Source: Escherichia coli
Lineage (GTDB): Bacteria > Pseudomonadota > Gammaproteobacteria > Enterobacterales > Enterobacteriaceae
Length of the DNA: 64,000 bases
Direction: 5' to 3' (one strand)
Assembly: GCF_045037415.1 (NCBI RefSeq)
Contig: NZ_CP173438.1
In this document: positions 3,456-47,179 of the stretch, in pieces
Layout: each line of letters begins with the position of its first letter
Position numbering within the stretch: the first letter of the stretch is position 1
The notes under the pieces: model-generated
What the model was told of the DNA's origin: nothing
The model's database searches: none
What the model saw: the letters and a program-made list of their open reading frames with translations, nothing else
Program-made: the position numbers and the translations under genes

Positions 3456-5069
3456 TCAATGCTTCACAATATACATAGTCCGACTGTACGCCACATCTTC
3501 AGGGTTGTTAATGGGATAACCTTTCAGCCACGGCTTGATTAATCGTCCATTGGTATATTGATAAATTGGTGCAATCGGTGCTTGCTCCATGAGGATTTTT
3601 TCTGCCGCGTTGTAATCGGCATTACGCGCTTTAACGGTATTTTCCGTCGATGCCTGGGCCAGAACTTTGTCATATGCCGGATTGTTAAAGCGTGAAATAT
3701 TCCCGGAATGCGTTGACGTTAATAATGTCAGGAAAGTGGAGGGTTCATTATAATCCCCTACCCACGAGGCGCGGATAACATCAAAATTGCCGGTATTACG
3801 GCTATCGATATAGGTTTTCCATTCCTGGTTTTGCAATTTAACATCTACGCCCAGGTTCTTTTTCCACATCGATGCTACAGCAATCGCAATTTTTTGATGG
3901 TTTTCTGAAGTGTTATACAAAAGCGTCAGCTTCAGCGGTTTTTGCGGACCATAACCAGCGGCGCTCAACAAAGTTTTTGCCTGCGCATTCAGTTCTTCCT
4001 GACTCATTTGTTCAAACGGCGAAGGTTCCGGCGTAAATCCCGCGGTAACATCTGGTGTAAAATGCCACGCTGGCTTTTCGCCCGTCCCCAACACTTTTTC
4101 GGTCATCAGGCGGCGATCTATCGTCATACTTAATGCCAGGCGAACGCGCTGATCTGCCGTCGGCCCTTTTTGCGTGTTAAACGCATAATAATAGGTCCCG
4201 AGCTGCGGCGGCGTATAAACCTGCCCCGGAATATCCTTCAACAGCTTCTGATACATATTTTTCGGGAAGGATTCGGTGATATCAATATCCCCCGCGAGAT
4301 AACGCTTAGTGGCTGCGGATTCCTGATTAATTGGCAGGAAGGTCACTTTTTGCAGTACCGTTTTGGCGTTATCCCAATAATGGGTATTCGGCACTACGAC
4401 CAGTTTTTCATTGACTACGCGCTCTTTAAGAACATAAGCGCCATTGCCGATCAGATTTCCGGGTTTCGTCCACTCTTTACTGCTTTCTACGTTGGCTTTT
4501 TGCACCGGGAAGAAGGCAAAGTTAGCGGTTAAATTCACAAACCACGGCAACGGTTTATCAAGCTGGATTTTCAAAGTATGGGCATCAACTGCGGTAACGC
4601 CAAGCTGGTCAGGCGTGGCTTTACCATCAATAATCGCCTGTGCGTTGTTGATTCCCGCCAGCGCGGCAAACCATGCAAATGGCGAAAGCGTTTTCGGGTC
4701 CACCAGACGTTGCCAGCTGTAGACAAAATCTTGCGCCGTTACCGGTGTGCCATCCGCCCATTTTGCGTTATCGCGCAGGGTAAAAGTCCAGATACGGTTG
4801 TCATTACTTTTCCACTGAGTCGCAACGCCGGGGACAATCTCCCCTTTCTCGTTCTGATTCACCAGTCCTTCAAACAGATCGCGAATGACCTGAATCTCCG
4901 GCAGGCCCACGGCTTTAGCGGGATCCAGCGACGCTGGCTCATCTTTAATGTGGCGCACCAGCTCCTGCTTCTCTGCCAGTACTGTGCCGCTCGGAACTTC
5001 AGCAGCATACGAAAGAGAAATGCTGCTGACCAACAGCGCACAACACGTGACTGAAACAGAGTGCTTCAT
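3456..5069 (-). CDS. mppA: Periplasmic murein tripeptide-binding protein MppA (OppA paralog)
   Basis: ORF 3456..5090; start placed at MKHSVSVTCCALL (signal peptide) giving 537 aa; SBP family 5. Confidence 0.9.
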   Translation of the reverse strand: MKHSVSVTCCALLVSSISLSYAAEVPSGTVLAEKQELVRHIKDEPASLDPAKAVGLPEIQVIRDLFEGLVNQNEKGEIVPGVATQWKSNDNRIWTFTLRDNAKWADGTPVTAQDFVYSWQRLVDPKTLSPFAWFAALAGINNAQAIIDGKATPDQLGVTAVDAHTLKIQLDKPLPWFVNLTANFAFFPVQKANVESSKEWTKPGNLIGNGAYVLKERVVNEKLVVVPNTHYWDNAKTVLQKVTFLPINQESAATKRYLAGDIDITESFPKNMYQKLLKDIPGQVYTPPQLGTYYYAFNTQKGPTADQRVRLALSMTIDRRLMTEKVLGTGEKPAWHFTPDVTAGFTPEPSPFEQMSQEELNAQAKTLLSAAGYGPQKPLKLTLLYNTSENHQKIAIAVASMWKKNLGVDVKLQNQEWKTYIDSRNTGNFDVIRASWVGDYNEPSTFLTLLTSTHSGNISRFNNPAYDKVLAQASTENTVKARNADYNAAEKILMEQAPIAPIYQYTNGRLIKPWLKGYPINNPEDVAYSRTMYIVKH

Positions 5070-8090: not shown

Positions 8091-8117
8091 ATCGTACTGT
8101 ACTATGTGCAGTACGAT
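8091..8117 (+). terminator. Hairpin downstream of the ymjC-like gene
   Basis: ATCGTACTG / CAGTACGAT 9-bp inverted repeat followed by an AT-rich tract. Confidence 0.4.
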
Positions 8118-8236
8118 TTATTAAACTTATTAAGGTGAACTGATCAATCAGATGCGATTAACATGTGTAGAACCAGTAAGAATAAAATACGCCATGTATA
8201 TAACATTACGACAATTCTAATATCTGCACATCAATG

Positions 8237-8273
8237 AAAATGCAAACAACTTCCGGCAAAAAAGTGATACAAG
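8237..8273 (+). repeat. Copy B of the ~36-bp conserved element, upstream of mpaA
   Basis: Near-identical to 5126..5161. Confidence 0.7.
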
Positions 8274-8362
8274 ATCGATGACATAGCGTTGAAGAAAAGG
8301 ATTTGATAATCCGCAAAATTTGCACAACACTGCCTGTAATACTTCCTGAACCAGAGACGATC

Positions 8363-9091
8363 ATGACCGTAACTCGCCCACGCGCCGAACGCGGCGCATT
8401 TCCGCCCGGAACAGAACATTACGGACGTTCATTATTGGGCGCGCCGTTAATCTGGTTTCCGGCCCCTGCAGCCAGTCACGAAAGTGGTTTGATTCTGGCT
8501 GGCACTCACGGTGATGAAAACTCTTCGATCGTCACGCTCTCCTGTGCTCTGCGGACTTTGACACCTTCTTTGCGCCGCCATCATGTGGTGCTGTGTGTGA
8601 ATCCTGACGGCTGCCAGTTAGGGTTACGGGCCAATGCTAATGGTGTGGATTTAAACCGAAACTTTCCGGCAGCGAACTGGAAGGAAGGTGAAACAGTTTA
8701 TCGCTGGAACAGCGCCGCTGAAGAACGTGATGTTGTATTACTGACAGGTGACAAACCTGGCTCCGAACCTGAAACCCAGGCGCTGTGCCAGCTTATACAC
8801 CGCATTCAACCTGCCTGGGTGGTCTCATTCCACGATCCGCTGGCCTGTATTGAAGATCCCAGACACAGCGAATTAGGTGAATGGCTGGCCCAGGCGTTTG
8901 AATTGCCTCTGGTAACCAGCGTCGGTTATGAAACGCCTGGCTCTTTCGGCAGTTGGTGTGCAGATCTCAACTTGCATTGCATCACCGCAGAGTTTCCACC
9001 CATCTCCTCCGACGAAGCCAGCGAAAAATATCTCTTTGCGATGGCAAACTTGCTGCGCTGGCATCCTAAAGATGCAATTCGCCCGTCGTGA
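8363..9091 (+). CDS. mpaA: Murein peptide amidase A (gamma-D-Glu-meso-DAP amidase, M14 family)
   Basis: ORF 8303..9091; start placed at MTVTRPRAERG giving 242 aa; zinc-carboxypeptidase-like HGDE motif. Confidence 0.9.
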   Translation: MTVTRPRAERGAFPPGTEHYGRSLLGAPLIWFPAPAASHESGLILAGTHGDENSSIVTLSCALRTLTPSLRRHHVVLCVNPDGCQLGLRANANGVDLNRNFPAANWKEGETVYRWNSAAEERDVVLLTGDKPGSEPETQALCQLIHRIQPAWVVSFHDPLACIEDPRHSELGEWLAQAFELPLVTSVGYETPGSFGSWCADLNLHCITAEFPPISSDEASEKYLFAMANLLRWHPKDAIRPS

Positions 9092-12388: not shown

Positions 12389-13450
12389 TTATTTTTCGCT
12401 GGGCGTTTTGCCTTTTTGCAGAGTTTCTTTCACCTGACCGATAAGCTGACGACGGAAATCCCCGAGGCGTGGCTTGTCATCGTCAATCCACGGCAGCGGG
12501 CGGCAAAGCTCCATAGCTTTAATCCCGAGTCGTGCCGTCAGAAGTCCAGCACCAATCCCCTGAGCTGCCCGGGTAGACAAACGCGCAGCGAGATCTTGCG
12601 ACATCCAGTCCATCCCCACTTCGCGCACCAGTTCGCTGGCTCCGGCGAAAGCGATATTCAGCAATACCAGCTTAAACAGGCGCAAACGGCTGTAATATCC
12701 CAGTTCAATGCCATACAGCGTGGCGATGCGATTAATCAAACGCAGATTGCGCCAGGCGATAAACGCCATATCCACCAGCGCCAGTGGGCTAACGGCAATC
12801 ATTAACGTTGATTCCGCCGCTGAGCGGCTGATTTCGCGCCGCGCCTGGGCATCTAAAACTGGCTGGACCAGGTGAGCATACAAACTGACCACTTCACGAT
12901 CGTTCTGCGTTTCATGGATTGAGGCATACCAGCGCTGCAGCGCCGGATGTGACTGATCGATGCCCGCCTGCTGCGCCAGTTTTTCGCAGAATGCACGGCC
13001 TTTACCCGTGCCGTGACTGTGCAACAAATCGCGCGCTTCATCGCGTTCATGGGCGCGCTGTCGCAAGCGCCATAAGCGCCGCCACTCTGTTACCACAGAA
13101 CCTACGCCAGCGCCGATAATCAATGCCCCAGCGGCACATCCACCCAGCGCCACCCAGTCCTGGGTTTGCCAGGCGTTCATTGTCCACTGCACGCCCTGCC
13201 CGACAACGCTTGCGCCAAACAGAGCCAGCCCGCCCATCACCATTTTGCGCCACAGGCTGCGTTTCGGACGTAACGCTGCGTCCATCACCGCTTCAACTTG
13301 CCCCTCTTCTTCCTGTGCTTCGTCGAGCGTGGCCGGGGCAAAATTTTGCGCCTGATTTTCGTCAAAGGTCTGCTGCGCCCTGAATTTTGGATTCTGATCG
13401 ACCTCCAGTGGACCGTCGAAATCAATACGTGGTTTTAACGGTTCGGTCAT
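12389..13450 (-). CDS. ycjF: Inner-membrane protein YcjF (DUF697)
   Basis: 353-aa ORF; start overlaps the ycjX stop by 4 bp. Confidence 0.85.
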
Positions 13451-16998: not shown

Positions 16999-18081
16999 TT
17001 AGCAAATTGCTATTTCCGTTTCTGCATCAAAGAAATGACATTTAGTCATATCAAAATGAATAGTGATATTTTCTCCTGCATGATAATCATTTAACGCACC
17101 AGCACGGACCACTAACTCGTGCCCCCCAACCGTGGTGTAGAGCATAAATTCCGCACCGGTTAATTCCGCCACGCTAATTTTGGCGGAAATGTTATTTTCT
17201 TCTTGCGCATCCGGATGAATATCCTCCGGGCGTATTCCCATCACAATGGGTTTATGTAAACTTTCCTGCGTTTTCAGAACCGCTAATTTCTCTTCGGGAA
17301 TGGTTAATTTAAGTGTTTCCGTAACGAATTTATCGCCATCGATCGTGCCGCGAATAAAATTCATTGCTGGTGACCCAATAAATCCGGCAACAAACATATT
17401 CGCCGGTTGGTTATAGACCGTTTTCGGCGCACCGACCTGCTGAACAATCCCATCCTTCATAATGACAATCCGCGTCGCCATGGTCATCGCTTCGGTCTGA
17501 TCGTGGGTCACGTAGATCATGGTGGTGTTCAGTTTCTGATGCAGCTTGCTGATCTCTGCGCGCATTTGCACACGCAGCTTGGCATCCAGGTTAGAGAGCG
17601 GCTCATCCATTAAAAACACGCCCGCTTCGCGCACAATCGCCCGCCCAAGCGCCACTCGCTGACGTTGCCCGCCGGAAAGCGCGCCCGGCTTGCGTTTCAG
17701 GTACTCACGCAGGCCGAGGATTTGCGCCGCCCAGTTAACCCGCTCATCAATCATCTCTTTGGCGATTTTTTGTATCTTCAGGCCAAACGCCATGTTGTCG
17801 TAGACCGTCATATGCGGATACAGCGCGTAGTTCTGGAACACCATCGCGATATTGCGTGCTTTGGCTGGAACGTCATTCATTCGTTTGCCGTCGATCAACA
17901 GCTCACCGCCGCTGATCTCCTCAAGCCCGGCAATCATACGCAGGGTGGTCGATTTACCGCAGCCCGACGGACCGACAAACACGATGAACTCTTTATCGGC
18001 AATCTCCAGGCTGAAGTCCTTCACCACATGCACCTGGTTATCGTAGATCTTTTGAATATGTTGTAACGAAAGCTGTGCCAT
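16999..18081 (-). CDS. ycjV: ABC transporter ATP-binding protein YcjV (MalK/UgpC-like), apparently intact
   Basis: 360-aa ORF; Walker A GPSGCGKST, signature LSGGQRQRV, Walker B FLMDEPLS and a C-terminal MalK-type regulatory domain. Confidence 0.9.
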   Translation of the reverse strand: MAQLSLQHIQKIYDNQVHVVKDFSLEIADKEFIVFVGPSGCGKSTTLRMIAGLEEISGGELLIDGKRMNDVPAKARNIAMVFQNYALYPHMTVYDNMAFGLKIQKIAKEMIDERVNWAAQILGLREYLKRKPGALSGGQRQRVALGRAIVREAGVFLMDEPLSNLDAKLRVQMRAEISKLHQKLNTTMIYVTHDQTEAMTMATRIVIMKDGIVQQVGAPKTVYNQPANMFVAGFIGSPAMNFIRGTIDGDKFVTETLKLTIPEEKLAVLKTQESLHKPIVMGIRPEDIHPDAQEENNISAKISVAELTGAEFMLYTTVGGHELVVRAGALNDYHAGENITIHFDMTKCHFFDAETEIAIC

Positions 18082-31964: not shown

Positions 31965-31983
31965 CATTTCGACAATGCAACTT

Positions 31984-32065
31984 GCCGGGTGTGCCGTGAA
32001 CGCCTTATCAGGCCTACAAAATCAATACGTCGTTTGCAGGCCTGATAAGCGCTGCGCATCAGGCA
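31984..32065. repeat. REP/BIME-like palindromic elements downstream of pspF
   Basis: GCCGGGTGTGCCGTGAACGCCTTATCAGGCCTAC ... GCAGGCCTGATAAGCGCTGCGCATCAGGC, typical REP consensus pieces in inverted orientation. Confidence 0.7.
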
Positions 32066-32095
32066 TTATTGCGTTAACCCTGCTTCTGCGTATTA

Positions 32096-32167
32096 ATCTC
32101 TCAGCGCATCCTGCAAAATTTTCATTGCCGCATCGAATTGCGCAACCGGGATGGTATGGGCTTCGTT
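32096..32167 (-). pseudogene. Possible 3'-terminal remnant of a class-III aminotransferase gene (puuE/gabT-like)
   Basis: Minus-strand frame ends ...[24 protein letters not shown] followed by stop TAA at 32093-32095; resembles GabT-type C-termini (TIxDAQ.....I); no upstream ORF. Confidence 0.3.
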
Positions 32168-32255
32168 AGGCGGCGCATATTTGTGGTATTTGATCCGCCG
32201 CTATCGCAAAGTGCCATTGTATGATGGCGACAGAACGCCGGTGAGCGAAACGTAA
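32157..32255 (+). pseudogene. Possible 3'-terminal remnant of an APC-family permease gene (puuP-like)
   Basis: Plus-strand frame ends ...[32 protein letters not shown] (hydrophobic helix end plus basic cytoplasmic tail); no start or upstream ORF. Confidence 0.25.
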
Positions 32256-32388
32256 TAGTCGAATGCGCGGCGCATTATCCTGCCTGAGGGTAATGCACCG
32301 CGCCATTAACTATAAAAATATGTATGACCCGGATCACGAGTGCTATCATCCGCCCTTATGCTTAGCGCATTAACCCCAGGGGCAAATA

Positions 32389-36429: not shown

Positions 36430-37421
36430 TGCCATTACTCGATATTCGTAACCTGACCATTGAATTTAAAACCGGTGATGAGTGGGTTAAAGCCGTCGAC
36501 CGCGTAAGTATGACCTTAACCGAAGGTGAAATCCGCGGTCTTGTTGGCGAATCCGGTTCCGGTAAAAGTTTGATTGCGAAAGCGATTTGTGGGGTGAATA
36601 AAGATAACTGGCGTGTTACTGCTGACCGTATGCGTTTTGATGATATCGATTTGCTGCGTCTCTCCGCACGCGAACGGCGCAAGCTGGTTGGTCACAACGT
36701 GTCGATGATTTTCCAGGAACCGCAGTCGTGTCTTGACCCTTCAGAACGTGTGGGTCGCCAGTTGATGCAAAACATCCCAGCCTGGACCTATAAAGGCCGT
36801 TGGTGGCAGCGTTTTGGCTGGCGCAAACGCCGTGCCATTGAACTGCTGCACCGCGTGGGGATTAAAGATCACAAAGATGCGATGCGCAGTTTTCCCTATG
36901 AGTTGACCGAAGGCGAATGTCAGAAAGTGATGATAGCCATTGCACTGGCGAATCAACCGCGTCTGCTGATTGCTGACGAACCGACAAACTCAATGGAGCC
37001 AACAACCCAGGCGCAAATCTTTCGCCTCCTGACGCGTCTCAACCAAAACAGCAATACCACTATTTTGCTTATCAGCCATGACTTACAAATGCTTAGCCAA
37101 TGGGCGGATAAAATTAACGTGCTTTACTGCGGTCAAACGGTGGAAACCGCGCCGAGTAAGGAGTTGGTGACGATGCCACACCATCCTTATACCCAGGCGC
37201 TGATCCGCGCGATACCAGACTTCGGCAGCGCGATGCCGCATAAAAGTCGCCTCAATACGCTGCCCGGCGCTATCCCGCTACTGGAACAGTTACCGATTGG
37301 TTGTCGTCTGGGGCCACGTTGCCCGTATGCACAACGAGAATGCATTGTGACGCCACGTTTGACGGGGGCGAAAAATCATCTCTATGCCTGTCATTTCCCA
37401 CTGAACATGGAGAAAGAGTGA
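36429..37421 (+). CDS. sapD: ABC transporter ATP-binding protein SapD
   Basis: 330-aa ORF; Walker A GESGSGKS. Confidence 0.9.
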
Positions 37422-37422
37422 G

Positions 37423-38229
37423 ATGATCGAAACGCTACTTGAAGTGCGTAATTTAAGTAAAACGTTCCGCTACCGGACCGGCTGGTTTCGTCGTCAGACC
37501 GTAGAAGCGGTAAAACCCTTGAGCTTTACGCTACGTGAAGGCCAGACACTGGCGATTATCGGCGAGAATGGTTCGGGTAAATCCACGCTGGCAAAAATGC
37601 TGGCGGGAATGATAGAACCTACCAGCGGCGAGTTATTGATTGACGATCATCCGCTGCATTTTGGCGATTATTCCTTCCGCAGTCAGCGTATTCGCATGAT
37701 TTTTCAGGATCCTTCCACCTCGTTGAATCCCCGTCAACGTATCTCGCAAATTCTGGATTTTCCACTGCGCCTGAACACCGACCTGGAACCGGAACAGCGT
37801 CGCAAACAGATTATTGAAACGATGCGTATGGTTGGGCTGCTACCGGATCACGTCAGTTACTATCCGCATATGTTGGCACCCGGGCAAAAACAGCGTCTGG
37901 GTCTGGCGCGCGCGCTGATATTGCGCCCAAAAGTCATTATTGCCGATGAAGCCCTCGCCTCACTGGATATGTCGATGCGTTCGCAGTTGATTAATCTGAT
38001 GCTGGAGTTACAGGAAAAACAGGGCATTTCGTATATTTATGTTACCCAGCATATCGGAATGATGAAGCACATTAGCGACCAGGTGCTGGTGATGCATCAG
38101 GGCGAGGTTGTCGAGCGAGGCAGCACCGCAGATGTGCTGGCATCGCCGCTGCATGAACTCACCAAACGGCTGATCGCCGGTCATTTTGGCGAGGCATTGA
38201 CGGCGGATGCGTGGCGTAAGGACCGTTAG
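37423..38229 (+). CDS. sapF: ABC transporter ATP-binding protein SapF
   Basis: 268-aa ORF; Walker A GENGSGKST. Confidence 0.9.
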   Translation: MIETLLEVRNLSKTFRYRTGWFRRQTVEAVKPLSFTLREGQTLAIIGENGSGKSTLAKMLAGMIEPTSGELLIDDHPLHFGDYSFRSQRIRMIFQDPSTSLNPRQRISQILDFPLRLNTDLEPEQRRKQIIETMRMVGLLPDHVSYYPHMLAPGQKQRLGLARALILRPKVIIADEALASLDMSMRSQLINLMLELQEKQGISYIYVTQHIGMMKHISDQVLVMHQGEVVERGSTADVLASPLHELTKRLIAGHFGEALTADAWRKDR

Positions 38230-38236
38230 TGTTTTG

Positions 38237-38272
38237 CACCTCATCCTGACAGGCCCCCCTCAGGATGAGGTG
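38237..38272. terminator. Bidirectional hairpin between convergent sapF and the MFS gene
   Basis: CACCTCATCCTGA / TCAGGATGAGGTG perfect 13-bp inverted repeat with 10-nt loop. Confidence 0.6.
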
Positions 38273-38276
38273 TTCA

Positions 38277-39440
38277 TTACTTTTGGTTGTCGATTCTGGT
38301 GAGAGCAACCAGCAATGCCAGCGTATAACACACCGTAATTGCCAGACTCATTTTTAACAGTGTTTCTCCGCCAATTCCCGACAATGGCGCGGCTATACCG
38401 CCGAAGACAAACATGCTCATCCCCATCAACGCAGACGCCGTTCCAGATTCCTGCGTCCCTACTGCACTCATAGCCTCTGCCCCGCCAACAGTGCCGATGC
38501 CGCTACAAAATGCGATGGTGAAAAATAATGCCACCAGTGCCGGAATGGGCAATTGTATCCATGCGCATAAGACCGTGAGCAATGCACACAAAATTGCCGC
38601 TATCAGGCCACCTCGCAACAATGTCATCGCGTTAATCCGTCGCGCCAGGCGCGAGAAGATCCATGAAGCAATGATAAGTCCGGTGCCGTTAAGGCCAAAC
38701 ACCAGGCTAAATTGCATTGGACTAAAGCCAAATTCCTTCTGCAACACGAACGACGAAGAGCCGATATATGCAAACAAACCGGCCAGCATAAAACTTTGAA
38801 TCAGGCAAAAGCGCATAAAACGGCGGTTCTGCACCACGCTTCGTCCGGTTAATAGCAATGATGAGCCCCTTTTATTTTCTGGCAAGGTCTCATGAATAAA
38901 TAACAGACAGCCCAGCAACAGTACGGTGCTAATTTCAGCCATTACCCAGAATAAAGTGCGCCAGTCAAAAGTGCTAACAATGTACCCGCCCAGCACTGGC
39001 GACAACACCGGTGCCAGGCCATTCACCGTCATTAACAGCGCAAAAAACTGGGTCAACGTTACTCCCTGATATTTGTCACGAGCAATAGAACGAGAGAGCA
39101 CCGAACCACCCGCCCCCGCGATCCCTTGAATAAAACGCCAGACCACCAGCCAGTAAATATTGTTCGTTGTCGCGCATAAAATGGAAGAAACAATAAACAA
39201 TAGCAACGACAAGATTAACGGACGTTTACGCCCTATTTTGTCGCTCAGAGGGCCAAATAACAGTTGTCCGACGCCAAGACCAATCAGTGATGCGGTCAGG
39301 GTTAATTGCGTTATGGTCGTGGTTGCCGCCAGTTGCTCAGACATCTCCGGCAAAGCCGGCAAATAAAGATCGGTACACATCGGGCCGATACCGGCTAAAA
39401 GACCAAGAATCAATGCCCATGAAAGAGAGACTCTAGCCAT
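38277..39440 (-). CDS. MFS drug:H+ antiporter, Bcr/CflA (DHA1) family
   Basis: 387-aa ORF; about 12 predicted TM helices; MFS motif A GPLSDKIGRKRP; N-terminus resembles Bcr. Confidence 0.8.
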   Translation of the reverse strand: MARVSLSWALILGLLAGIGPMCTDLYLPALPEMSEQLAATTTITQLTLTASLIGLGVGQLLFGPLSDKIGRKRPLILSLLLFIVSSILCATTNNIYWLVVWRFIQGIAGAGGSVLSRSIARDKYQGVTLTQFFALLMTVNGLAPVLSPVLGGYIVSTFDWRTLFWVMAEISTVLLLGCLLFIHETLPENKRGSSLLLTGRSVVQNRRFMRFCLIQSFMLAGLFAYIGSSSFVLQKEFGFSPMQFSLVFGLNGTGLIIASWIFSRLARRINAMTLLRGGLIAAILCALLTVLCAWIQLPIPALVALFFTIAFCSGIGTVGGAEAMSAVGTQESGTASALMGMSMFVFGGIAAPLSGIGGETLLKMSLAITVCYTLALLVALTRIDNQK

Positions 39441-39448
39441 ATTATTCC

Positions 39449-40822
39449 TTACTTGAGTGATGACATACCGCCGCCCAGCGACTGCCAGAGCGTGATTCGG
39501 TTTGTAAAATCAGTCAGTTGCAGTGCCAGCAGCTCCTGCTGTGCGCTCCACAAGCTGCGCTGCGCCGTCAACACGGTCAGGTAATCACCAACACCCGCCT
39601 GATAGCGACGCAAGCCAACATCGACCGTTTGTTGTTCAGCTTTAACATACTGGCGCTGTGCATCCAGTTGCTCTTCAAGCGTGGTCCGCCGCGCCAGTGC
39701 GTTAGCGACATCTTTAAATGCGCTCTGAACGGTTTTTTCATAGGTGGCAATGAGTCCACGCTTTTGTGCTTCTGCGTAACGAAGCTGCGCCAGATTACTT
39801 CCGCCAGTAAACAGCGGTAATGTGACCGATGGCGCAAATGACCAGATCTGCATTCCGTGGCTGAACAACGACGACAACGCGTCACTGCCAACACCGGCAC
39901 TGGCAGTCAGCGAAATCGTCGGGAAAAAGTTAGCCCGCGCCGCGCCAATATCTGCATTGGCGCTCTTCAAATTATGTTCCGCTTCCTGGATATCCGGGCG
40001 ACGCAGCAGAACATCAGATGATACTCCCGCAGGAACCAGACTTATCATTTGTTCCGGCAGGCTTTCCAGTGTTCCCGGTAGCAGATTTTCCGCAAGCGTT
40101 GTACCTGCCAGTAAGTTCAGCGCATTTTTATCCTGCATCACTTGTGTCTGATAGCTGGCAACGCTGGCGCGCGCTTGCTGATAAACACTCATCGCCTCAC
40201 TGACATCTGTCGCTGCCGCCGTGCCAACCTGTTGCTGGCGCTGGATAATTTTCAATGAGTTTTCTGCACTGGCCATCGTTTCTTTTGCCAGGGCCAGGTT
40301 GCTGTTATCAGCCGCCAGTGTCAGCCAGGCGGTGCTGATTTCAGCAATCAGCGTTAAACGAGTGTTCTGGGCTGTAAATTCACTGGCAAGCCAGGTTTCC
40401 CGCGCCGCCCGAGATAAACTCTGATTACGACCAAACAGATCTAACGTATAACTGGACACCGTGCCGTCAGCCTCGGCAGTTGTTCCCGTACCATTCGCCA
40501 GCGAACGGCTGCGGGTCGAACTTAAGGCCGCATTCACCGTCGGAAATAACGACGCATTAGTTTGCCCATAGAGCGCCCGTGCTGAGTCAATATCAGCAAT
40601 CGCTTTTTGCACATCGCGGTTACTGTTCAGTGCAATGGTTACTACCTGCTGCAATCGGGGATCGTGGATCACCTGCTGCCAGTCATGGCTGATTGCCTTC
40701 CCCTGGCCCTGTGCTCCCGGCAAGGTCGCCGGGATTGGGGATTCAGGCGTACTGTAGTGAGGATCGAGCGAGACACATCCCGCACTCAACAACACCAGAA
40801 AAATAAGAGAACGACGCAACAT
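39449..40822 (-). CDS. Outer-membrane efflux lipoprotein (OMF, NodT/OprM family)
   Basis: 457-aa ORF; lipobox LLSAGC; two coiled-coil/TolC-like repeats. Confidence 0.85.
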   Translation of the reverse strand: MLRRSLIFLVLLSAGCVSLDPHYSTPESPIPATLPGAQGQGKAISHDWQQVIHDPRLQQVVTIALNSNRDVQKAIADIDSARALYGQTNASLFPTVNAALSSTRSRSLANGTGTTAEADGTVSSYTLDLFGRNQSLSRAARETWLASEFTAQNTRLTLIAEISTAWLTLAADNSNLALAKETMASAENSLKIIQRQQQVGTAAATDVSEAMSVYQQARASVASYQTQVMQDKNALNLLAGTTLAENLLPGTLESLPEQMISLVPAGVSSDVLLRRPDIQEAEHNLKSANADIGAARANFFPTISLTASAGVGSDALSSLFSHGMQIWSFAPSVTLPLFTGGSNLAQLRYAEAQKRGLIATYEKTVQSAFKDVANALARRTTLEEQLDAQRQYVKAEQQTVDVGLRRYQAGVGDYLTVLTAQRSLWSAQQELLALQLTDFTNRITLWQSLGGGMSSLK

Positions 40823-40825
40823 AAC

Positions 40826-43800
40826 TTACTCCTGACGGCGCGGTTTACCGGCAAACAAACGTTTCACCAGTACAAAAAACAGAGGAACGAAGAAAATGGC
40901 CAGTAATGTAGCGGTCAGCGTGCCGCCAATAATGCCCGTACCAATGGCGATGCGGCTGTTCGCCCCTGCGCCGGTTGCTATCGCCAGCGGCATTACCCCC
41001 GCAATAAACGCCAGCGAGGTCATGATGATTGGGCGTAAACGAGTCTGCGCCGCGCGTAATGCCGCACGACTCAAGGAATAGCCCTCTGCAACCGCCGCTT
41101 CAGCAAATTCCACAATCAGAATGGCGTTTTTCGACGACAAGCCGATAGTAGTTAATAGCGCTACCTGGAAGTAAACGTCGTTGTTTAAATCACGCATCCA
41201 GGCCGCCAGCGCCGCGCCAAGAAGCCCCAGAGGGATCACCAGAATGACCGAGAACGGGACTGACCAGCTTTCGTACAGTGCTGCAAGGCAGAGGAAAACC
41301 ACCAGAATAGAAACTGCATACAGACTTAATGCCTGACCGCTGGCCAGTTTCTCCTGCAATGACAAACCACTCCAGGCCCAGGTTGTTCCCGCAGGAAGAC
41401 TGTTTGCCAGTTCCTCCATTTTTGTCATTGCATCGCCGGAACTAAAGCCAGTCGCGTTTTCGCCCTGAATTTCATAGGCTGCCGAGCCGTTGTAGCGCAC
41501 CAGTCTTTCCGGTCCATACAGCCAGCGGGTGGTCGCAAAAGCAGAGAATGGTGTCATGGCGTTATCGCTGCCGCGCACAAACCATTTACCTAAGTCTGAC
41601 GGCGCGGAACGAAATTCGCTGTCGCCCTGAATGTAGACTTTTTTCACACGACCACGGTCAATAAAGTCATTCACATAAGTACCGCCCCACGCACTGGACA
41701 GGGTGTCGGTGACATCATTCAAACTCAACCCTAATGACACCGCTTTATTACTATCAATATCTACCTGCAATTGCGGCATTTGTGGCAAATCATTGGCGCG
41801 TACAGAATGTAACTCCGGACTTTGATTCGCTTTTTCTATCAACTGATTACGCATTTGCAGCAGTGTTTCACGATCGGTTCCACCGTTAGCTAACAATTCA
41901 AACGTAAAACCATTGCTTTGGCCCAGCCCATCAACGGCTGGCGGCGTCATCGCAAATACCGTGGCATCACGAATTGTGCCCAGCTCTTTGGTTGCCCGTA
42001 GGGCGATAGCCTGGGCGGTGTTTTCTGCCCCTTTACGTTGAGACCAGTTTTTCAACGAAACAAACGCCATCCCGGTGTTCTGTCCGCTACCGCTAAAACT
42101 GAAACCATCAACGGTAAAGATGACATCGGTATTTGCTTTCTCGTTAATCAGGAACCAGTCAACAATCTGGCGATTCACTTCTGCTGTACGGGCAGCGGTC
42201 GCCCCGGCCGGCAGCGTGTACTGCACCATGATTTCGCCCTGGTCTTCAGTGGGTAAGAAACTGCCCGGCAGTTTCCACATCATCAGGGCCATTCCACCAC
42301 CCAGCACGACATAAAGCCCCATCGTTCGGGCTGCACGGCGCAGGACATAAATTACGCCTCGCTGATATTTATCTTCAGTACGGCGGTAAAAGCGGTTAAA
42401 TGCGCCGAAAAAGCCTTTTTTATGTGGTGGAACATGCTGGAGGACGGAACCGCACAGGGCGGGAGTCAAGGTCAATGCCACCACCACGGAAAGCAGCATT
42501 GCGGAGATGATGGTGATGGAGAACTGACGATAAATTACCCCCGTAGATCCCCCAAAGAAGGCCATCGGCAGGAATACGGCTGACAACACCAGCGCAATGG
42601 CAACCAGTGCGCCAGAAATCTCGCCCATTGATTTTTCCGTGGCTTCACGCGCGGGCAACCCTTCGTCACGCATAATGCGTTCGACGTTCTCTACCACCAC
42701 AATGGCATCGTCCACCAGCAAGCCGATCGCCAGCACCATTGCAAACAACGTCAGGGTATTAATCGAATAGCCAAACAACGCAAGAACGCCGAATGTGCCC
42801 AGCAAAACGACGGGGACAGCTAACGCCGGAATCAGTGTGGCACGCAGGTTTTGCAGGAATAAATACATCACGCAAACCACCAATACGATGGCTTCAAACA
42901 GCGTCTGAATTACGTCCTCTACGGAGATTTTAATAAATTCAGTGCTGTCTTTCGGGTATGCGATGTCGTATCCCTGCGGCATGTTCCGCTGGAATTCGGC
43001 AATCTTATCCTTGACCAGCGTCGCCGTATTCAGCGCATTCGCACCGGGCGAAAGCATTACAGCAACCCCGGCAGACGGGTGACCGTTAAGTTTGCCGATA
43101 GCGGTATAATCTTCACTGCCCATCTCAACGCGAGCCACATCTTTTATACGAACAACTGCGCCGTCTGACTGGCTTTTCACGATAATATTTTTGAACTGAT
43201 CCACCGTCTGCAAGCGAGACTGCGCACGTACCGTTGCGGTCAGTTGCTGAGTATCCGGTGAAGGCAATGCCCCTATTTTCCCGGCAGTAACCTGCACGTT
43301 TTGCGCTTCAATAGCACTTTGCACGTCTGAAGGCATCAGCGAGTAAGACGCCAGTTTGGCCGGGTCAAGCCAGATGCGCATAGCGTATTCCGCGCCAAAG
43401 ACTTGCAGACTCCCCACACCTTCAACACGCGCCAGCGGGTCCTGAACGTTACTGACCAGCCAGTCGGCGATATCCGAACTGGAGGCTTTGTCAGTGGTGT
43501 CATACACGGCAGCAATCAGCAAAAAGTTGCTTTGTGATTTCTCCACCGTAACACCCGTTTGCTGCACTTCGCTGGGTAGGCGCGACTCCGCCTGCTGAAT
43601 TTTATTCTGCACCTGAACCTGTGCAGTATCTGGATCGGTACCTTGTTCAAAGGTCACATTAATACTGACCGAACCATCAGAGCTACTGGTTGAGCTGAAA
43701 TAGAGTAAATTATCAAGCCCAGTGAGTTGTTGCTCGATAACCTGAGTCACGCTGTTCTCCAGCGTTTCGGCAGAAGCACCAGTATAAGTGGCTGAAATTT

Positions 43801-43933
43801 TAATGGTCGGCGGTGCAACGTCAGGATATTGCGCGACGGGCAATGTGCGAATAGCCAGAATCCCTGCCAACATAATCAAAATGGCGATAACCCAGGCAAA
43901 GACCGGGCGGCGAACAAAAAAGCGCGAAAACAT
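40826..43933 (-). CDS. RND multidrug efflux transporter (HAE1 family, AcrB/MexB-like)
   Basis: 1035-aa ORF; N-terminus MFSRFFVRRPVFAWVIAILIMLAG and overall motifs closely parallel AcrB but not identical; 12-TM RND architecture. Confidence 0.9.
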   Translation of the reverse strand: MFSRFFVRRPVFAWVIAILIMLAGILAIRTLPVAQYPDVAPPTIKISATYTGASAETLENSVTQVIEQQLTGLDNLLYFSSTSSSDGSVSINVTFEQGTDPDTAQVQVQNKIQQAESRLPSEVQQTGVTVEKSQSNFLLIAAVYDTTDKASSSDIADWLVSNVQDPLARVEGVGSLQVFGAEYAMRIWLDPAKLASYSLMPSDVQSAIEAQNVQVTAGKIGALPSPDTQQLTATVRAQSRLQTVDQFKNIIVKSQSDGAVVRIKDVARVEMGSEDYTAIGKLNGHPSAGVAVMLSPGANALNTATLVKDKIAEFQRNMPQGYDIAYPKDSTEFIKISVEDVIQTLFEAIVLVVCVMYLFLQNLRATLIPALAVPVVLLGTFGVLALFGYSINTLTLFAMVLAIGLLVDDAIVVVENVERIMRDEGLPAREATEKSMGEISGALVAIALVLSAVFLPMAFFGGSTGVIYRQFSITIISAMLLSVVVALTLTPALCGSVLQHVPPHKKGFFGAFNRFYRRTEDKYQRGVIYVLRRAARTMGLYVVLGGGMALMMWKLPGSFLPTEDQGEIMVQYTLPAGATAARTAEVNRQIVDWFLINEKANTDVIFTVDGFSFSGSGQNTGMAFVSLKNWSQRKGAENTAQAIALRATKELGTIRDATVFAMTPPAVDGLGQSNGFTFELLANGGTDRETLLQMRNQLIEKANQSPELHSVRANDLPQMPQLQVDIDSNKAVSLGLSLNDVTDTLSSAWGGTYVNDFIDRGRVKKVYIQGDSEFRSAPSDLGKWFVRGSDNAMTPFSAFATTRWLYGPERLVRYNGSAAYEIQGENATGFSSGDAMTKMEELANSLPAGTTWAWSGLSLQEKLASGQALSLYAVSILVVFLCLAALYESWSVPFSVILVIPLGLLGAALAAWMRDLNNDVYFQVALLTTIGLSSKNAILIVEFAEAAVAEGYSLSRAALRAAQTRLRPIIMTSLAFIAGVMPLAIATGAGANSRIAIGTGIIGGTLTATLLAIFFVPLFFVLVKRLFAGKPRRQE

Positions 43934-45054
43934 CAGGCGTTGCCTCCATTAGCCTGAACTTCAACAGCCTTGACGGTCTGCCCTGAAGTGACTTTGGCAG
44001 AACCTTCAACAATCAGTCGGTCGCCGTTGTGCAGGCCGTTCAGCACCAGCCATTTATCACCATACGTTTCTCCCGTTTCGAGCGTTCGCTGCTCTACTTT
44101 ATTGTCTTTATTCACCACCAGCGCAGTTGCATTGCCTTTAGCATCGCGCGTAACGCCCTGTTGAGGCGCGAGAATAGCGTTTTCCATCACGCCTTCATCG
44201 ACACGAGCGCGAACAAACATTCCCGGTAATAACTGCTGTTGTGGATTGGGGAAAATTGCCCGTAATATCACCGAACCGGTAGACTCATCCACCGCGACTT
44301 CGGTGAGTTCCAGACGCCCTTTTTCGCTGTAGGTTGTGCCATCTTCCAGAATAAGTGAGACGCTCATGGTGTCACTGTTGGTCGCCAGTGACTGTTTACG
44401 CAGACGTAATAAATCGACACTGGAGCGAGTGAGGTCGACATACATTGTATCCAGACCACGAATAGTCGTTAACGCTGTATCCTGCGACGCGGTCACCAGT
44501 GCGCCAGGGGTTACCGACGAAATACCAATACGCCCCGAAATCGGTGCGGTTACCGTGGTCCAGTCAAGATTAATGCGCGCAGTTTCCAGTGCGGCTTTTT
44601 TCGCCTCTACACTGGCTTTATCTTGTGCACAGGTAGACTGAGCATCATCAGCATCCTGTTGTGAAACACCATTCTCTTTCACCAGTCGGGCATAACGCTG
44701 CGCTTTCTGGCAATCGGCTTTTACCAGTGCCTGTGCTTGTTGTAATGCTGCCCGGGCTTCATTCCATGCAGCCTGATAACTGGCCGCATCAATCTGGTAG
44801 AGAGGCTGTCCAGCCTTGACCAGATCACCTTCCTTAAATAAGCGTTTCTGGATAATTCCCCCAACCTGCGGACGTACTTCAGCACTGAGCGCAGCACTGG
44901 TGCGTCCGGTTAATTCACTGACTACCGAAACCGGTTGAGATTTGAGCGTAACAACGCCGACTTCTGTTTCTGACGGGGATGAATTGTTACTTTGCGTATT
45001 ATCACAACCCGATAAGAGCAGCATTGCCACTACAGATGTTGCTATATACTTCAT
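43933..45054 (-). CDS. RND periplasmic adaptor (membrane fusion protein, AcrA/MexA-like lipoprotein)
   Basis: ORF 43933..45087; start placed at MKYIATSVVAMLLLSGC (ATG 45052-45054, preceded by GGAG SD); 1-nt overlap with the RND start. Confidence 0.85.
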   Translation of the reverse strand: MKYIATSVVAMLLLSGCDNTQSNNSSPSETEVGVVTLKSQPVSVVSELTGRTSAALSAEVRPQVGGIIQKRLFKEGDLVKAGQPLYQIDAASYQAAWNEARAALQQAQALVKADCQKAQRYARLVKENGVSQQDADDAQSTCAQDKASVEAKKAALETARINLDWTTVTAPISGRIGISSVTPGALVTASQDTALTTIRGLDTMYVDLTRSSVDLLRLRKQSLATNSDTMSVSLILEDGTTYSEKGRLELTEVAVDESTGSVILRAIFPNPQQQLLPGMFVRARVDEGVMENAILAPQQGVTRDAKGNATALVVNKDNKVEQRTLETGETYGDKWLVLNGLHNGDRLIVEGSAKVTSGQTVKAVEVQANGGNA

Positions 45055-45138
45055 TATTTTCTCCAGGGTGAGAAATACCCTCCTCATTGAAATTAATGAG
45101 GATATGTCAGGGATATTCAGTTATAACGAACCCGCATC

Positions 45139-45154
45139 GCGAAATGAATTTCGC
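45139..45154. promoter_or_regulatory. Candidate repressor operator upstream of the adaptor-RND-OMF-MFS genes
   Basis: Palindrome GCGAAATGAATTTCGC (7+2+7) about 85 bp upstream of the adaptor start codon. Confidence 0.4.
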
Positions 45155-45164
45155 AATGAAATAA

Positions 45165-45182
45165 GGGGGATTAATATCCCCC
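45165..45182 (-). terminator. Hairpin downstream of the TetR-family gene (possible attenuating terminator before the pump genes)
   Basis: GGGGGAT-taat-ATCCCCC inverted repeat about 20 bp after the TetR stop, followed on the minus strand by TTATTT. Confidence 0.5.
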
Positions 45183-45202
45183 GCTATTGGTTAATTCTGT
45201 TC

Positions 45203-45769
45203 TTATTTATTTATCAACATACTAACAATATCCTGATATATTTCCTGCAGATGTTGTGGATCGCTTTTTTGCGGTGTTAAACGACGATAAACCGTACCTT
45301 CCATCATGGTAGCAAACACTTCAACGCAGCAACGAATGTGCTCGTCGCTAAGATGGGGATGCATTCTTTTCATATGTGCACAACCGTTAGCGAACATTCT
45401 GGCGTCAGCTTCTTCAAGCATTGCCATAACCCGCGGGTTGCGTGTGGCTTCTGCAGCCACTTCCAGCATCAGCGCGTCGTCGTCCTCATTTAAGGATTTA
45501 CGCAAGGCAAGGACTTCCGGGAAGTGATCGGTACGCGCGTCAATGTCCATTTGGGCAATACGAAAGTCGATGATACGGCGAACCATCTCTTCAATAATGG
45601 CGTCTTTGTTGGCGAAGTAACGATATATCTGACCCACGCTAAGCTGAGCTTCGCTGGCAATTTGCGACATACTGGCGGCATGAAATCCGCAGCGACGAAA
45701 ACACCGACGGGCGGCGTTAATGATTTCATCCTGACGCTGTTTGTGGCGTATCTCCAGCTTGCTGGTCAT
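45203..45769 (-). CDS. TetR-family transcriptional regulator (probable repressor of the adjacent efflux genes)
   Basis: ORF 45203..45868; start placed at MTSKLEIRHKQRQDEI (ATG 45767-45769, AGGAGA SD) because the longer N-terminus would begin upstream of the predicted promoter; TetR HTH (MSQIASEAQLSVGQIYRYF). Confidence 0.8.
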   Translation of the reverse strand: MTSKLEIRHKQRQDEIINAARRCFRRCGFHAASMSQIASEAQLSVGQIYRYFANKDAIIEEMVRRIIDFRIAQMDIDARTDHFPEVLALRKSLNEDDDALMLEVAAEATRNPRVMAMLEEADARMFANGCAHMKRMHPHLSDEHIRCCVEVFATMMEGTVYRRLTPQKSDPQHLQEIYQDIVSMLINK

Positions 45770-45795
45770 TTCTGTCTCCTGGCCTATCACTTGGT

Positions 45796-45827
45796 GAGAA
45801 TGATCATTCTCATTTTTGCTAATTATA
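45796..45827 (-). promoter_or_regulatory. Candidate promoter -10 with overlapping palindromic operator for the TetR-family gene
   Basis: Minus strand: TATAAT at 45822-45827, then 10 bp, then perfect 16-bp palindrome GAGAATGATCATTCTC (45796-45811), about 27 bp before the start codon. Confidence 0.5.
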
Positions 45828-46246
45828 CGTTTCTCCAAAGTAATGGAAAGTATTTTTATCTTATTCATGATGCATATTCTGATAATGAAGAGATTGTGGA
45901 GATTCTGTGAAGATAGTTGACAATATTAAGTTGGAGTCAATTCATCAGAAAGACAGCGACTTGTTGTCGCCAGTTCTGTTTTCATCATTAAACTTATAGG
46001 AGCTAATACGAATAGTTTCAAAGTCAGATTCTATAAGATATTTCCCCAACCTCCCCCTTGCAGGCGTCAGGAGTAGATAACGCAAAATGCTCTGTACCGC
46101 AGCTTCTCTCCGCTACAGAAAGCGCAACTATAGCCACCCACAGCCAGGTTGATTATAATAACCGTTTATCAGTTCGTACTGTTTACTAAAACGACGAATC
46201 GCCTGATTTTCAGGCACAACAAGCATCAACAATAAGGATTAAAGCT

Positions 46247-47035
46247 ATGGGTTTTCTTTCCGGTAAGCGCATTCTGGTAACCGGTGTTGCCAGCAAACTG
46301 TCCATCGCCTACGGTATCGCTCAGGCGATGCACCGCGAAGGAGCTGAACTGGCATTCACCTACCAGAACGACAAACTGAAAGGCCGCGTAGAAGAATTTG
46401 CCGCTCAATTGGGTTCTGACATCGTTCTGCAGTGCGATGTTGCCGAAGATACCAGCATCGACACCATGTTCGCTGAACTGGGGAAAGTTTGGCCGAAATT
46501 TGACGGTTTCGTACACTCTATTGGTTTTGCACCTGGCGATCAGCTGGATGGTGACTATGTTAACGCCGTTACTCGTGAAGGCTTCAAAATTGCCCACGAC
46601 ATCAGCTCCTACAGCTTCGTTGCAATGGCAAAAGCTTGCCGCTCCATGCTGAATCCGGGTTCTGCCCTGCTGACCCTTTCCTACCTTGGCGCTGAGCGCG
46701 CTATCCCGAATTACAACGTTATGGGTCTGGCAAAAGCGTCTCTGGAAGCGAACGTGCGCTATATGGCGAACGCGATGGGTCCGGAAGGTGTGCGTGTTAA
46801 CGCCATCTCTGCTGGTCCGATCCGTACTCTGGCGGCTTCCGGTATCAAAGACTTCCGCAAAATGCTGGCTCATTGCGAAGCCGTTACCCCGATTCGCCGT
46901 ACCGTTACTATTGAAGATGTGGGTAACTCCGCGGCATTCCTGTGCTCCGATCTCTCTGCCGGTATCTCCGGTGAAGTGGTCCACGTTGACGGCGGTTTCA
47001 GCATCGCTGCAATGAACGAACTCGAACTGAAATAA
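46247..47035 (+). CDS. fabI: Enoyl-ACP reductase (NADH) FabI
   Basis: 262-aa ORF; recognised sequence [40 protein letters not shown]. Confidence 0.95.
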
Positions 47036-47179
47036 TCGTTCTGTTGGTAAATATTGGGCGGCGTTCTGCCGCCCGTTATCTCTGTTATACCTTTCTGATA
47101 TTTGTTATCGCCGATCCGTCTTTCTCCCCTTCCCGCCTTGCGTCAGGATAACGATTTCCTTTACGACCAAGGAGCGCCC

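Follow-up and report, generated by a model that had tools for sequence, protein, structure and literature searches.

Genes named eefR, eefA and eefB were first noted in some Escherichia coli strains and in E. albertii by Colclough et al. in 2019 (PMC6790063). A five-gene operon occupying the sapF-fabI interval was reported by Pugh et al. (bioRxiv 2024; Microb Genom 2026) for phylogroups B2, D, E, F and G; phylogroups A, B1 and C lack it and have ycjD there instead (PMC12817139). The operon, eefRABCD, encodes the normally silent seventh resistance-nodulation-division (RND) pump of E. coli, together with a companion exporter of the major facilitator superfamily (MFS) (PMC12817139, PMC12482432). 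In strain ATCC 35218 the five genes are co-transcribed, as determined by reverse transcription-PCR (RT-PCR), and a 316-bp upstream fragment has promoter activity that EefR can repress (PMC12482432). Using electrophoretic mobility shift assays and a green fluorescent protein reporter, Shen et al. (2025) showed that EefR represses its own promoter via the palindrome TGAGAACGATCATTCTCA; in a strain without eefR, the mRNA levels of eefA to eefD rose 27- to 83-fold, eefA by 83-fold (PMC12482432). Cloned eefABC or eefD conferred higher minimal inhibitory concentrations (MICs) in strains without acrB (PMC12482432), and ethidium efflux by Eef has been demonstrated (PMC12817139). Here we analyzed a 64,000-nucleotide stretch of E. 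coli DNA (contig NZ_CP173438.1), called the window below, which carries between sapF and fabI an efflux locus that is almost certainly the chromosomal eefRABCD operon. The finding is genuine, but the operon has already been described in the literature.

The efflux locus between sapF and fabI

Five intact open reading frames (ORFs) lie on the minus strand and run opposite to both neighbors, sapF and fabI. They stand exactly where a sequence-only reading of the window had placed five co-directional genes in the order TetR regulator, adaptor, RND pump, outer-membrane factor (OMF) and MFS transporter. Both the ORF list of the window and the RefSeq coding sequence (CDS) calls agree with these coordinates, and NCBIfam family models and RefSeq annotation agree with the order. 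A genome search showed that positions 37400 to 47100 are 100% identical to E. coli strains SK1144 and NR1430, and the RefSeq CDS calls in SK1144 coincide to the base with all five ORFs. The first gene of the operon, eefR (45203-45769), encodes a TetR-family repressor of 188 residues (WP_000202113.1). It is followed by eefA (43933-45054), which codes for a 373-residue periplasmic adaptor lipoprotein and is preceded by a Shine-Dalgarno sequence, GGAG, at 45064-45061; by eefB (40826-43933), for a 1035-residue HAE1 RND permease; by eefC (39449-40822), for a 457-residue outer-membrane lipoprotein channel of the NodT/OprM type; and by the last gene, eefD (38277-39440), for a 387-residue MFS exporter of the Bcr/CflA family (WP_000135013.1). 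The eefA gene overlaps the start region of eefB, position 43933 being common to both CDS. Mechanically called ORFs extend further, to 45087 for the adaptor and to 45868 for the TetR gene, and other genera do not conserve the additional start codons.

Family assignments were judged against the curated NCBIfam cut-offs. EefB scored 1553.7 with TIGR00915 (cut-off 940.35), EefA 273 with TIGR01730 (94.9), EefC 373.8 with TIGR01845 (210.05) and EefD 279.5 with the Bcr/CflA model TIGR00710 (200.9), all above the respective thresholds. As judged from these families, adaptor, permease and OMF together have the make-up of an HAE1 tripartite RND efflux system. EefD scored below the equivalog cut-offs of Bcr (NF008314, 228 versus 303), EmrD and TcaB; because it falls short of NF008314, it is a member of the Bcr/CflA family and not Bcr itself. 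EefR matched TetR helix-turn-helix models and no NCBIfam equivalog. Among solved structures in the PDB, the best relatives are OprM for EefC (E = 4e-101) and UidR for EefR (E = 1.4e-12), with EmrD and MdfA nearest to EefD, while all the matches listed for EefB (the best 60) are other pumps, relatives of AcrB, MexB and MdtF.

The residues that mark the published proteins are present as well. EefR has 188 residues with Val45 and Arg50 in helix 3, the sites of published derepressing mutations. EefB has the proton-relay residues D408, D409, K935 and T972, and EefA contains the RLS(D) motif (R120, L124, S131, D136), plus R123, V125 and D134, and the lipobox LLLSGC. The N terminus of EefC, MLRRSLIFLVLLSAGC, includes a lipobox Cys, and all the gate residues reported in PMC12817139 (D206, G412, L415, T416, L418 and T419) were found. 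Every sequence diagnostic of the published operon that we checked was thus recovered: position, order, operator, and the EefR, EefB, EefC and EefA residues. It is the agreement of position, order, sizes, operator and diagnostic residues with the published operon that identifies the locus as eefRABCD. The sequence-only reading had ventured “EefABC-like” as a guess and had taken the system to be of a known type; the guess was well aimed, as the system had been published as E. coli eefRABCD (PMC12817139, PMC12482432, PMC6790063).

Distribution in E. coli and other Enterobacteriaceae

Of 5426 complete E. coli genomes, 2037 (approximately 38%) have the whole locus, presence being counted when a single place covered at least 80% of the query. 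Nearly all the remaining genomes match the flanks only, and among the matches listed, genomes with the full locus are 98.1 to 100% identical to the window. In K-12 MG1655, ycjD alone is located between sapF and fabI. By blastn, homology to K-12 stops at position 38219 and restarts at 46124, just before a promoter-like site of fabI (46131-46159); the strain-variable segment (38220-46123) thus spans 7.9 kb, and its K-12 counterpart is a 675-bp segment with ycjD. This comparison and the genome count bear out the earlier statement that K-12 holds only ycjD here and that the locus is strain-variable. The accompanying remark that an operon-encoded OMF is unusual compared with K-12 holds for multidrug (HAE1) RND pumps but not overall, as cusCFBA of K-12 encodes its own outer-membrane factor, CusC.

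We found no eef remnants in the K-12 sapF-fabI interval with blastn (word size 7, E ≤ 1), which returned only the flanks and a weak 15-nt match; remnants suggested by Fig. 3 of PMC12817139 could not be confirmed in this way. In this K-12 interval (positions 3897-4460 of the extract), a second, partial ycjD 3′ end (GGAGACGGTGCTGGAGAATATTC...) lies downstream of ycjD, together with G/C-rich palindromes resembling repetitive extragenic palindromic (REP) elements. The partial ycjD copy and the REP-like palindromes point to local rearrangement at this site.

In E. whittamii, the gene order is sapF-eefDCBAR-fabI, with 96 to 97% protein identity, and eefR adjoins fabI in E. albertii. The cassette occupies other chromosomal positions in Citrobacter koseri, C. 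amalonaticus, Kluyvera, Pseudocitrobacter and Lelliottia, with EefB 88 to 91% identical; across Citrobacter, Kluyvera, Klebsiella and Enterobacter, the EefB orthologues are 87 to 91% identical. Its composition also varies. The eefR ORF has been lost in five Klebsiella species, Raoultella terrigena and Enterobacter sp. 10-1, all of which keep the promoter and a now-orphan operator, and operator and eefA lie 201 to 280 nt apart there, compared with about 730 to 750 nt in eefR-containing species (about 740 nt in the window). Lelliottia has eefRABC without eefD. In Kluyvera genomosp. 3 and Kluyvera georgiana, eefD comes directly after eefR, and searches for EefA, EefB and EefC gave no match in the sequence examined around these loci.

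Promoter and EefR operator

The motif TGAGAAN6TTCTCA occurs once, at 45795-45812; no occurrence would be expected by chance. The operator, TGAGAATGATCATTCTCA, is a perfect 18-bp palindrome one central base off the published ATCC 35218 site. Position 7 is T in the window and C in the published site, in most species sampled and in the E. coli record NZ_CP141085.1; T is likewise found in E. albertii, Klebsiella pneumoniae and Raoultella species. The operator lies between the −10 box and eefR, just downstream of the TATAAT at 45827-45822. This box belongs to a promoter-like site on the minus strand, PeefR (45822-45849), with a −35 element TTTCCA, a 16-nt spacer and 10 of 12 matches.

In an alignment of six genera, the operator half-sites are identical, ACGTAT in the −10 region does not vary and a CTTT(C/T)C block is kept; the full ACGTATAAT of the −10 region is present in five of the six. 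A combined pattern of −10 box and operator found matches in 34 species of Enterobacteriaceae, searched as contigs with one genome per species. Because promoter and operator are conserved across genera and species, control by EefR via this shared operator is, as read from these alignments, ancestral to the cassette across the Enterobacteriaceae and not an adaptation specific to E. coli.

A structured leader between eefR and eefA

The 148-nt spacer between eefR and eefA (45055-45202, minus strand) is predicted to fold into three hairpins, with a minimum free energy of −47.3 kcal/mol and a z-score of −3.36. The first, HP1 (45182-45165, with a tail to 45155), begins about 20 nt past the eefR stop codon and consists of GGGGGAU-AUUA-AUCCCCC followed by UUAUUUCAUU. 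A terminator scan called it terminator-like, and the fold prediction agrees. The stem with its T-rich tail is present in all 23 eefR-containing species examined, the tail being weak in E. albertii. HP1 was scored by detection in each sequence and not by a covariation count, as its runs of G and C prevent a single alignment register. It is also kept, like the two other hairpins, in K. pneumoniae, R. terrigena and Enterobacter sp. 10-1, all of which lack eefR. HP1 seems decayed in the Klebsiella oxytoca group.

The second predicted hairpin, HP2 (45135-45158, minus strand), has the sequence CAUUGCGAAA-UUCA-UUUCGCGAUG. Over 23 species, 96.1% of its cells are paired and six of the nine pairs have changed on both sides. 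None of 500 shuffles reached the observed value, and slid controls gave 35 to 50%. The third predicted hairpin, HP3 (45081-45102, minus strand; UCCUCAUU-AAUUUC-AAUGAGGA), is located in the eefA 5′ region. There, 93.9% of cells are paired over 26 species, with two-sided changes at six of eight pairs, no shuffle out of 500 at the observed value and slid controls at 35 to 64%. The HP3 alignment was anchored at the first base of the stem; when MAFFT and RNAalifold were run on the whole spacer, only HP2 and a portion of HP1 came out. Both HP2 and HP3 are strongly backed by covariation; the shuffle control for these two hairpins takes no account of phylogeny. U·G pairs are frequent, occurring at one HP2 pair in 17 of 23 sequences and at two HP3 pairs in 8 and 6 of 26, which points to RNA of the sense strand.

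The leader matched no Rfam family, the three matches obtained being at chance level (E = 2.5 to 7.9) and far under the gathering scores. A terminator is not mentioned in PMC12817139 or PMC12482432, where “hairpin” refers to protein domains, and a literature search found no such report. No second conserved promoter is visible between HP1 and eefA in the spacer alignment. We rejected a leader peptide in the spacer, as C. koseri and Kluyvera do not conserve its sole AUG (AUGCGG...).

In our reading, HP1 would be a partial intrinsic terminator and would curb the transcription that runs on from eefR into the pump genes. A more elaborate role for the leader, as a regulated transcription attenuator of the pump genes rather than a passive terminator, is in our view unlikely. 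If it were true, the leader would represent a second switch, at the RNA level, that keeps EefABC(D) cryptic until a signal permits read-through, and it could help explain why two published studies disagree about the phenotype of the operon.

Alternative explanations

The resemblance of EefB to AcrB might mean that the locus is a copy or allele of K-12 acrAB, acrEF, acrD or mdtEF and no separate pump. The best solved matches of EefB are indeed AcrB orthologues, and its raw scores with the AcrD and AcrB models are high, but both fall below the equivalog cut-offs (1410.7 versus 1854 and 1379.4 versus 2150, respectively), and EefB is 57% identical to AcrB (PMC12817139). The same is true of EefA, whose best models are MexA (401 versus 750) and AcrA (388.9 versus 765). 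The locus moreover has OMF, MFS and TetR genes of its own and a fixed, separate position, and K-12 is without it. This explanation has virtually no chance of being correct, and the sequence-only reading rightly set the RND protein apart from AcrB as a distinct paralog. It is scarcely more credible that the operon encodes a CusCBA-like exporter of heavy metals in place of a multidrug or amphiphile pump. EefC does score well against CusC and SilC, but EefB belongs to HAE1 and reaches only 386 with the CusA/CzcA subfamily model TIGR00914 (cut-off 701.45); there is no methionine relay, and susceptibility to Co, Ni, Zn and Fe was unchanged (PMC12817139). A third view, that the locus is a recent mobile island or is plasmid-borne and spreading, might draw on the five E. 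coli strains with plasmid-borne eef listed by Shen et al. (PMC12482432), on three E. coli entries of PLSDB that contain the locus in full (CP054253.1, NZ_CP141085.1 and NZ_CP134663.1), and on the different chromosomal positions of the same cassette in other genera, which imply that it moved at some point in evolution. However, the two PLSDB records inspected carry the whole chromosomal stretch pspA-sap-eef-fabI-rnb-osmB, including the essential fabI, a third record is 4.9 Mb long, and all PLSDB matches are typed as non-mobilizable; they look like mislabelled pieces of chromosome, and we rejected plasmid carriage for the records inspected. At the borders of the segment, the RefSeq annotation has no insertion sequence or integrase, and within 38100-46300 we found no border-marking repeats, the repeats present being short and at chance level. 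The GC content of eef (0.49 to 0.54) is like that of the flanks, and this comparison, which the sequence-only reading had proposed, revealed no anomaly beyond the AT-rich regulatory region around 45000-46000 (0.43 to 0.47). The sapF-eef-fabI order in E. whittamii and the proximity of eefR to fabI in E. albertii also speak against recent mobility, which we consider very improbable.

The three hairpins of the leader could, by another account, be DNA inverted repeats serving as protein operators, or have no function, instead of being RNA elements. Several palindromes are common at TetR-regulated loci. Yet the stems diverge widely between genera while remaining 94 to 96% paired with many two-sided changes, whereas a protein-binding site would conserve its sequence. 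The U·G pairs, frequent in both HP2 and HP3, would be A-C mismatches on the opposite strand, and a 148-bp probe of DNA downstream of the eefR gene gave no binding by EefR (PMC12482432). We therefore regard DNA repeats or functionless structures as quite unlikely and favor RNA elements in the leader.

Proposed mechanism and significance

Combining these data with the published work, we propose the following scheme. EefR would bind the 18-bp palindrome downstream of its own −10 box and keep the five-gene transcript nearly silent, as shown by others in ATCC 35218; in the present strain, repressor, promoter and operator half-sites are the same in sequence. Loss of EefR, or its relief by a ligand, would give rise to the single eefR-A-B-C-D mRNA that others have demonstrated. 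HP1 would probably stop most basal transcripts after eefR, adding a second layer to the silence of the pump genes. Based on homology and conserved residues, a proton-driven EefB trimer would assemble with EefA and EefC into an envelope-spanning exporter like AcrAB-TolC or MexAB-OprM, and by homology EefD is predicted to be a single-component, 12-helix MFS exporter of the inner membrane.

Several observations weigh against this picture or limit it. HP1 cannot be a complete block, because RT-PCR products span the eefR-eefA junction and eefA mRNA increases 83-fold in the absence of eefR (PMC12482432). Pugh et al. observed no antibiotic phenotype upon deletion of the operon or upon its expression from pET in MG1655 without acrB, and the effects that they found were limited to ethidium and rhodamine 6G (PMC12817139). 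Shen et al. reported that MICs rose 4- to 128-fold with pBR322 clones in DH5alpha without acrB (PMC12482432). The two functional studies thus conflict on the antibiotic phenotype, and the sequence, as we read it, points to neither a substrate nor an inducer.

The operon matters as a seventh RND pump in the E. coli phylogroups that are most closely associated with infection (B2, D, E, F and G), with multidrug resistance possible once the repressor is lost. This biology has all been published before, and the window adds nothing to it. Our additions are that the PLSDB records inspected lend no support to plasmid spread, that EefR control is ancestral to the cassette, and that the leader ahead of eefA is structured and conserved and includes a terminator-like hairpin.

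Flanking genes and other features of the window

The genes that flank the locus, sapF (37423-38229, plus strand) and fabI (46247-47035, plus strand), scored 588.9 with NF011692 (cut-off 452) and 594.9 with NF005938 (cut-off 477), respectively. Between the convergent ends of sapF and eefD, a hairpin with a 13-bp stem (38237-38272) was read directly from the sequence; it is probably a bidirectional terminator common to the two genes. A similar hairpin was seen by eye just before ycjD in K-12, where blastn gave only a 15-nt, 93% match (38237-38251, at two K-12 places, E = 0.7). Regarding a role of the locus in anti-phage defence, PADLOC gave no matches.

Elsewhere, the window differs from K-12 in several places. 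The K-12 genes for putrescine utilization, puuP-ymjE-puuADRCBE (approximately 9.1 kb between ymjA and pspF), are absent (31965-32388), and only a 108-nt pseudogene fragment (32148-32255) is located between pspF and ymjA. The ycjF gene (13061-13450, minus strand) comprises 390 nt and encodes 129 residues, versus 1062 nt and 353 residues in K-12, owing to an in-frame deletion of 672 nt, and the distance between tyrR and ycjX is 534 nt versus 1206 nt. The high-numbered accession of the short YcjF, WP_126347409.1, hints that this variant may be uncommon. Two genes, in 8106-8744 and 16999-18081, differ from the K-12 record in their intactness: a short-chain dehydrogenase/reductase (SDR) family oxidoreductase gene is intact here and a mere pseudogene fragment in the K-12 record, and the gene for an ATP-binding cassette (ABC) ATPase adjoining ompG is intact here and frameshifted in that record.

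Comparison with known systems

AcrAB-TolC shares with the eef system its architecture, its proton-relay residues and a local repressor of the TetR family; AcrB is about 57% identical to EefB (PMC12817139), and the scores remain under the equivalog cut-offs. The eef operon encodes its own OprM-like outer-membrane channel, whereas AcrAB uses TolC. In addition, eefR is the first co-transcribed gene of its operon, whereas acrR is divergently transcribed.

MexAB-OprM of Pseudomonas aeruginosa is likewise a tripartite HAE1 pump with an operon-encoded lipoprotein channel of the OprM type. OprM is the best solved match of EefC, MexA is the best NCBIfam match of EefA, and MexB comes near the score of AcrB against EefB. 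The Pseudomonas system differs in that its operon has no MFS gene and is expressed constitutively, whereas eef is cryptic, and EefA remains below the MexA cut-off. Its regulator, MexR, is of the MarR type, a different family from that of EefR.

EefABC of Klebsiella (Enterobacter) aerogenes and K. pneumoniae is closer, its adaptor, RND and OMF genes being orthologous to eefA, eefB and eefC. The system was reportedly described by Masi et al. in 2005/2006 and by Coudeyras et al. in 2008, and in K. aerogenes the silencing of eef is said to be due to H-NS. The Klebsiella orthologues are 77 to 79% (EefA), 87% (EefB) and 74% (EefC) identical to the proteins of the window. These values agree with the identities of 78.1, 87.3 and 74.9% reported relative to E. 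aerogenes EefABC (PMC12482432), which supports the assignment to eef. No eefR ORF is present in the Klebsiella species sampled, unlike in E. coli eef, and K. pneumoniae has the promoter and operator sequence and hairpins HP1 to HP3 in common with E. coli.

The eefRABCD operons of E. coli ATCC 25922, SMS-3-5 and ATCC 35218 have the same position, orientation, five-gene order, gene lengths, operator motif and diagnostic residues as the locus described here. Relative to published E. coli eefRABCD, the only difference that we found is the central operator base, T in the window and C in the published site.

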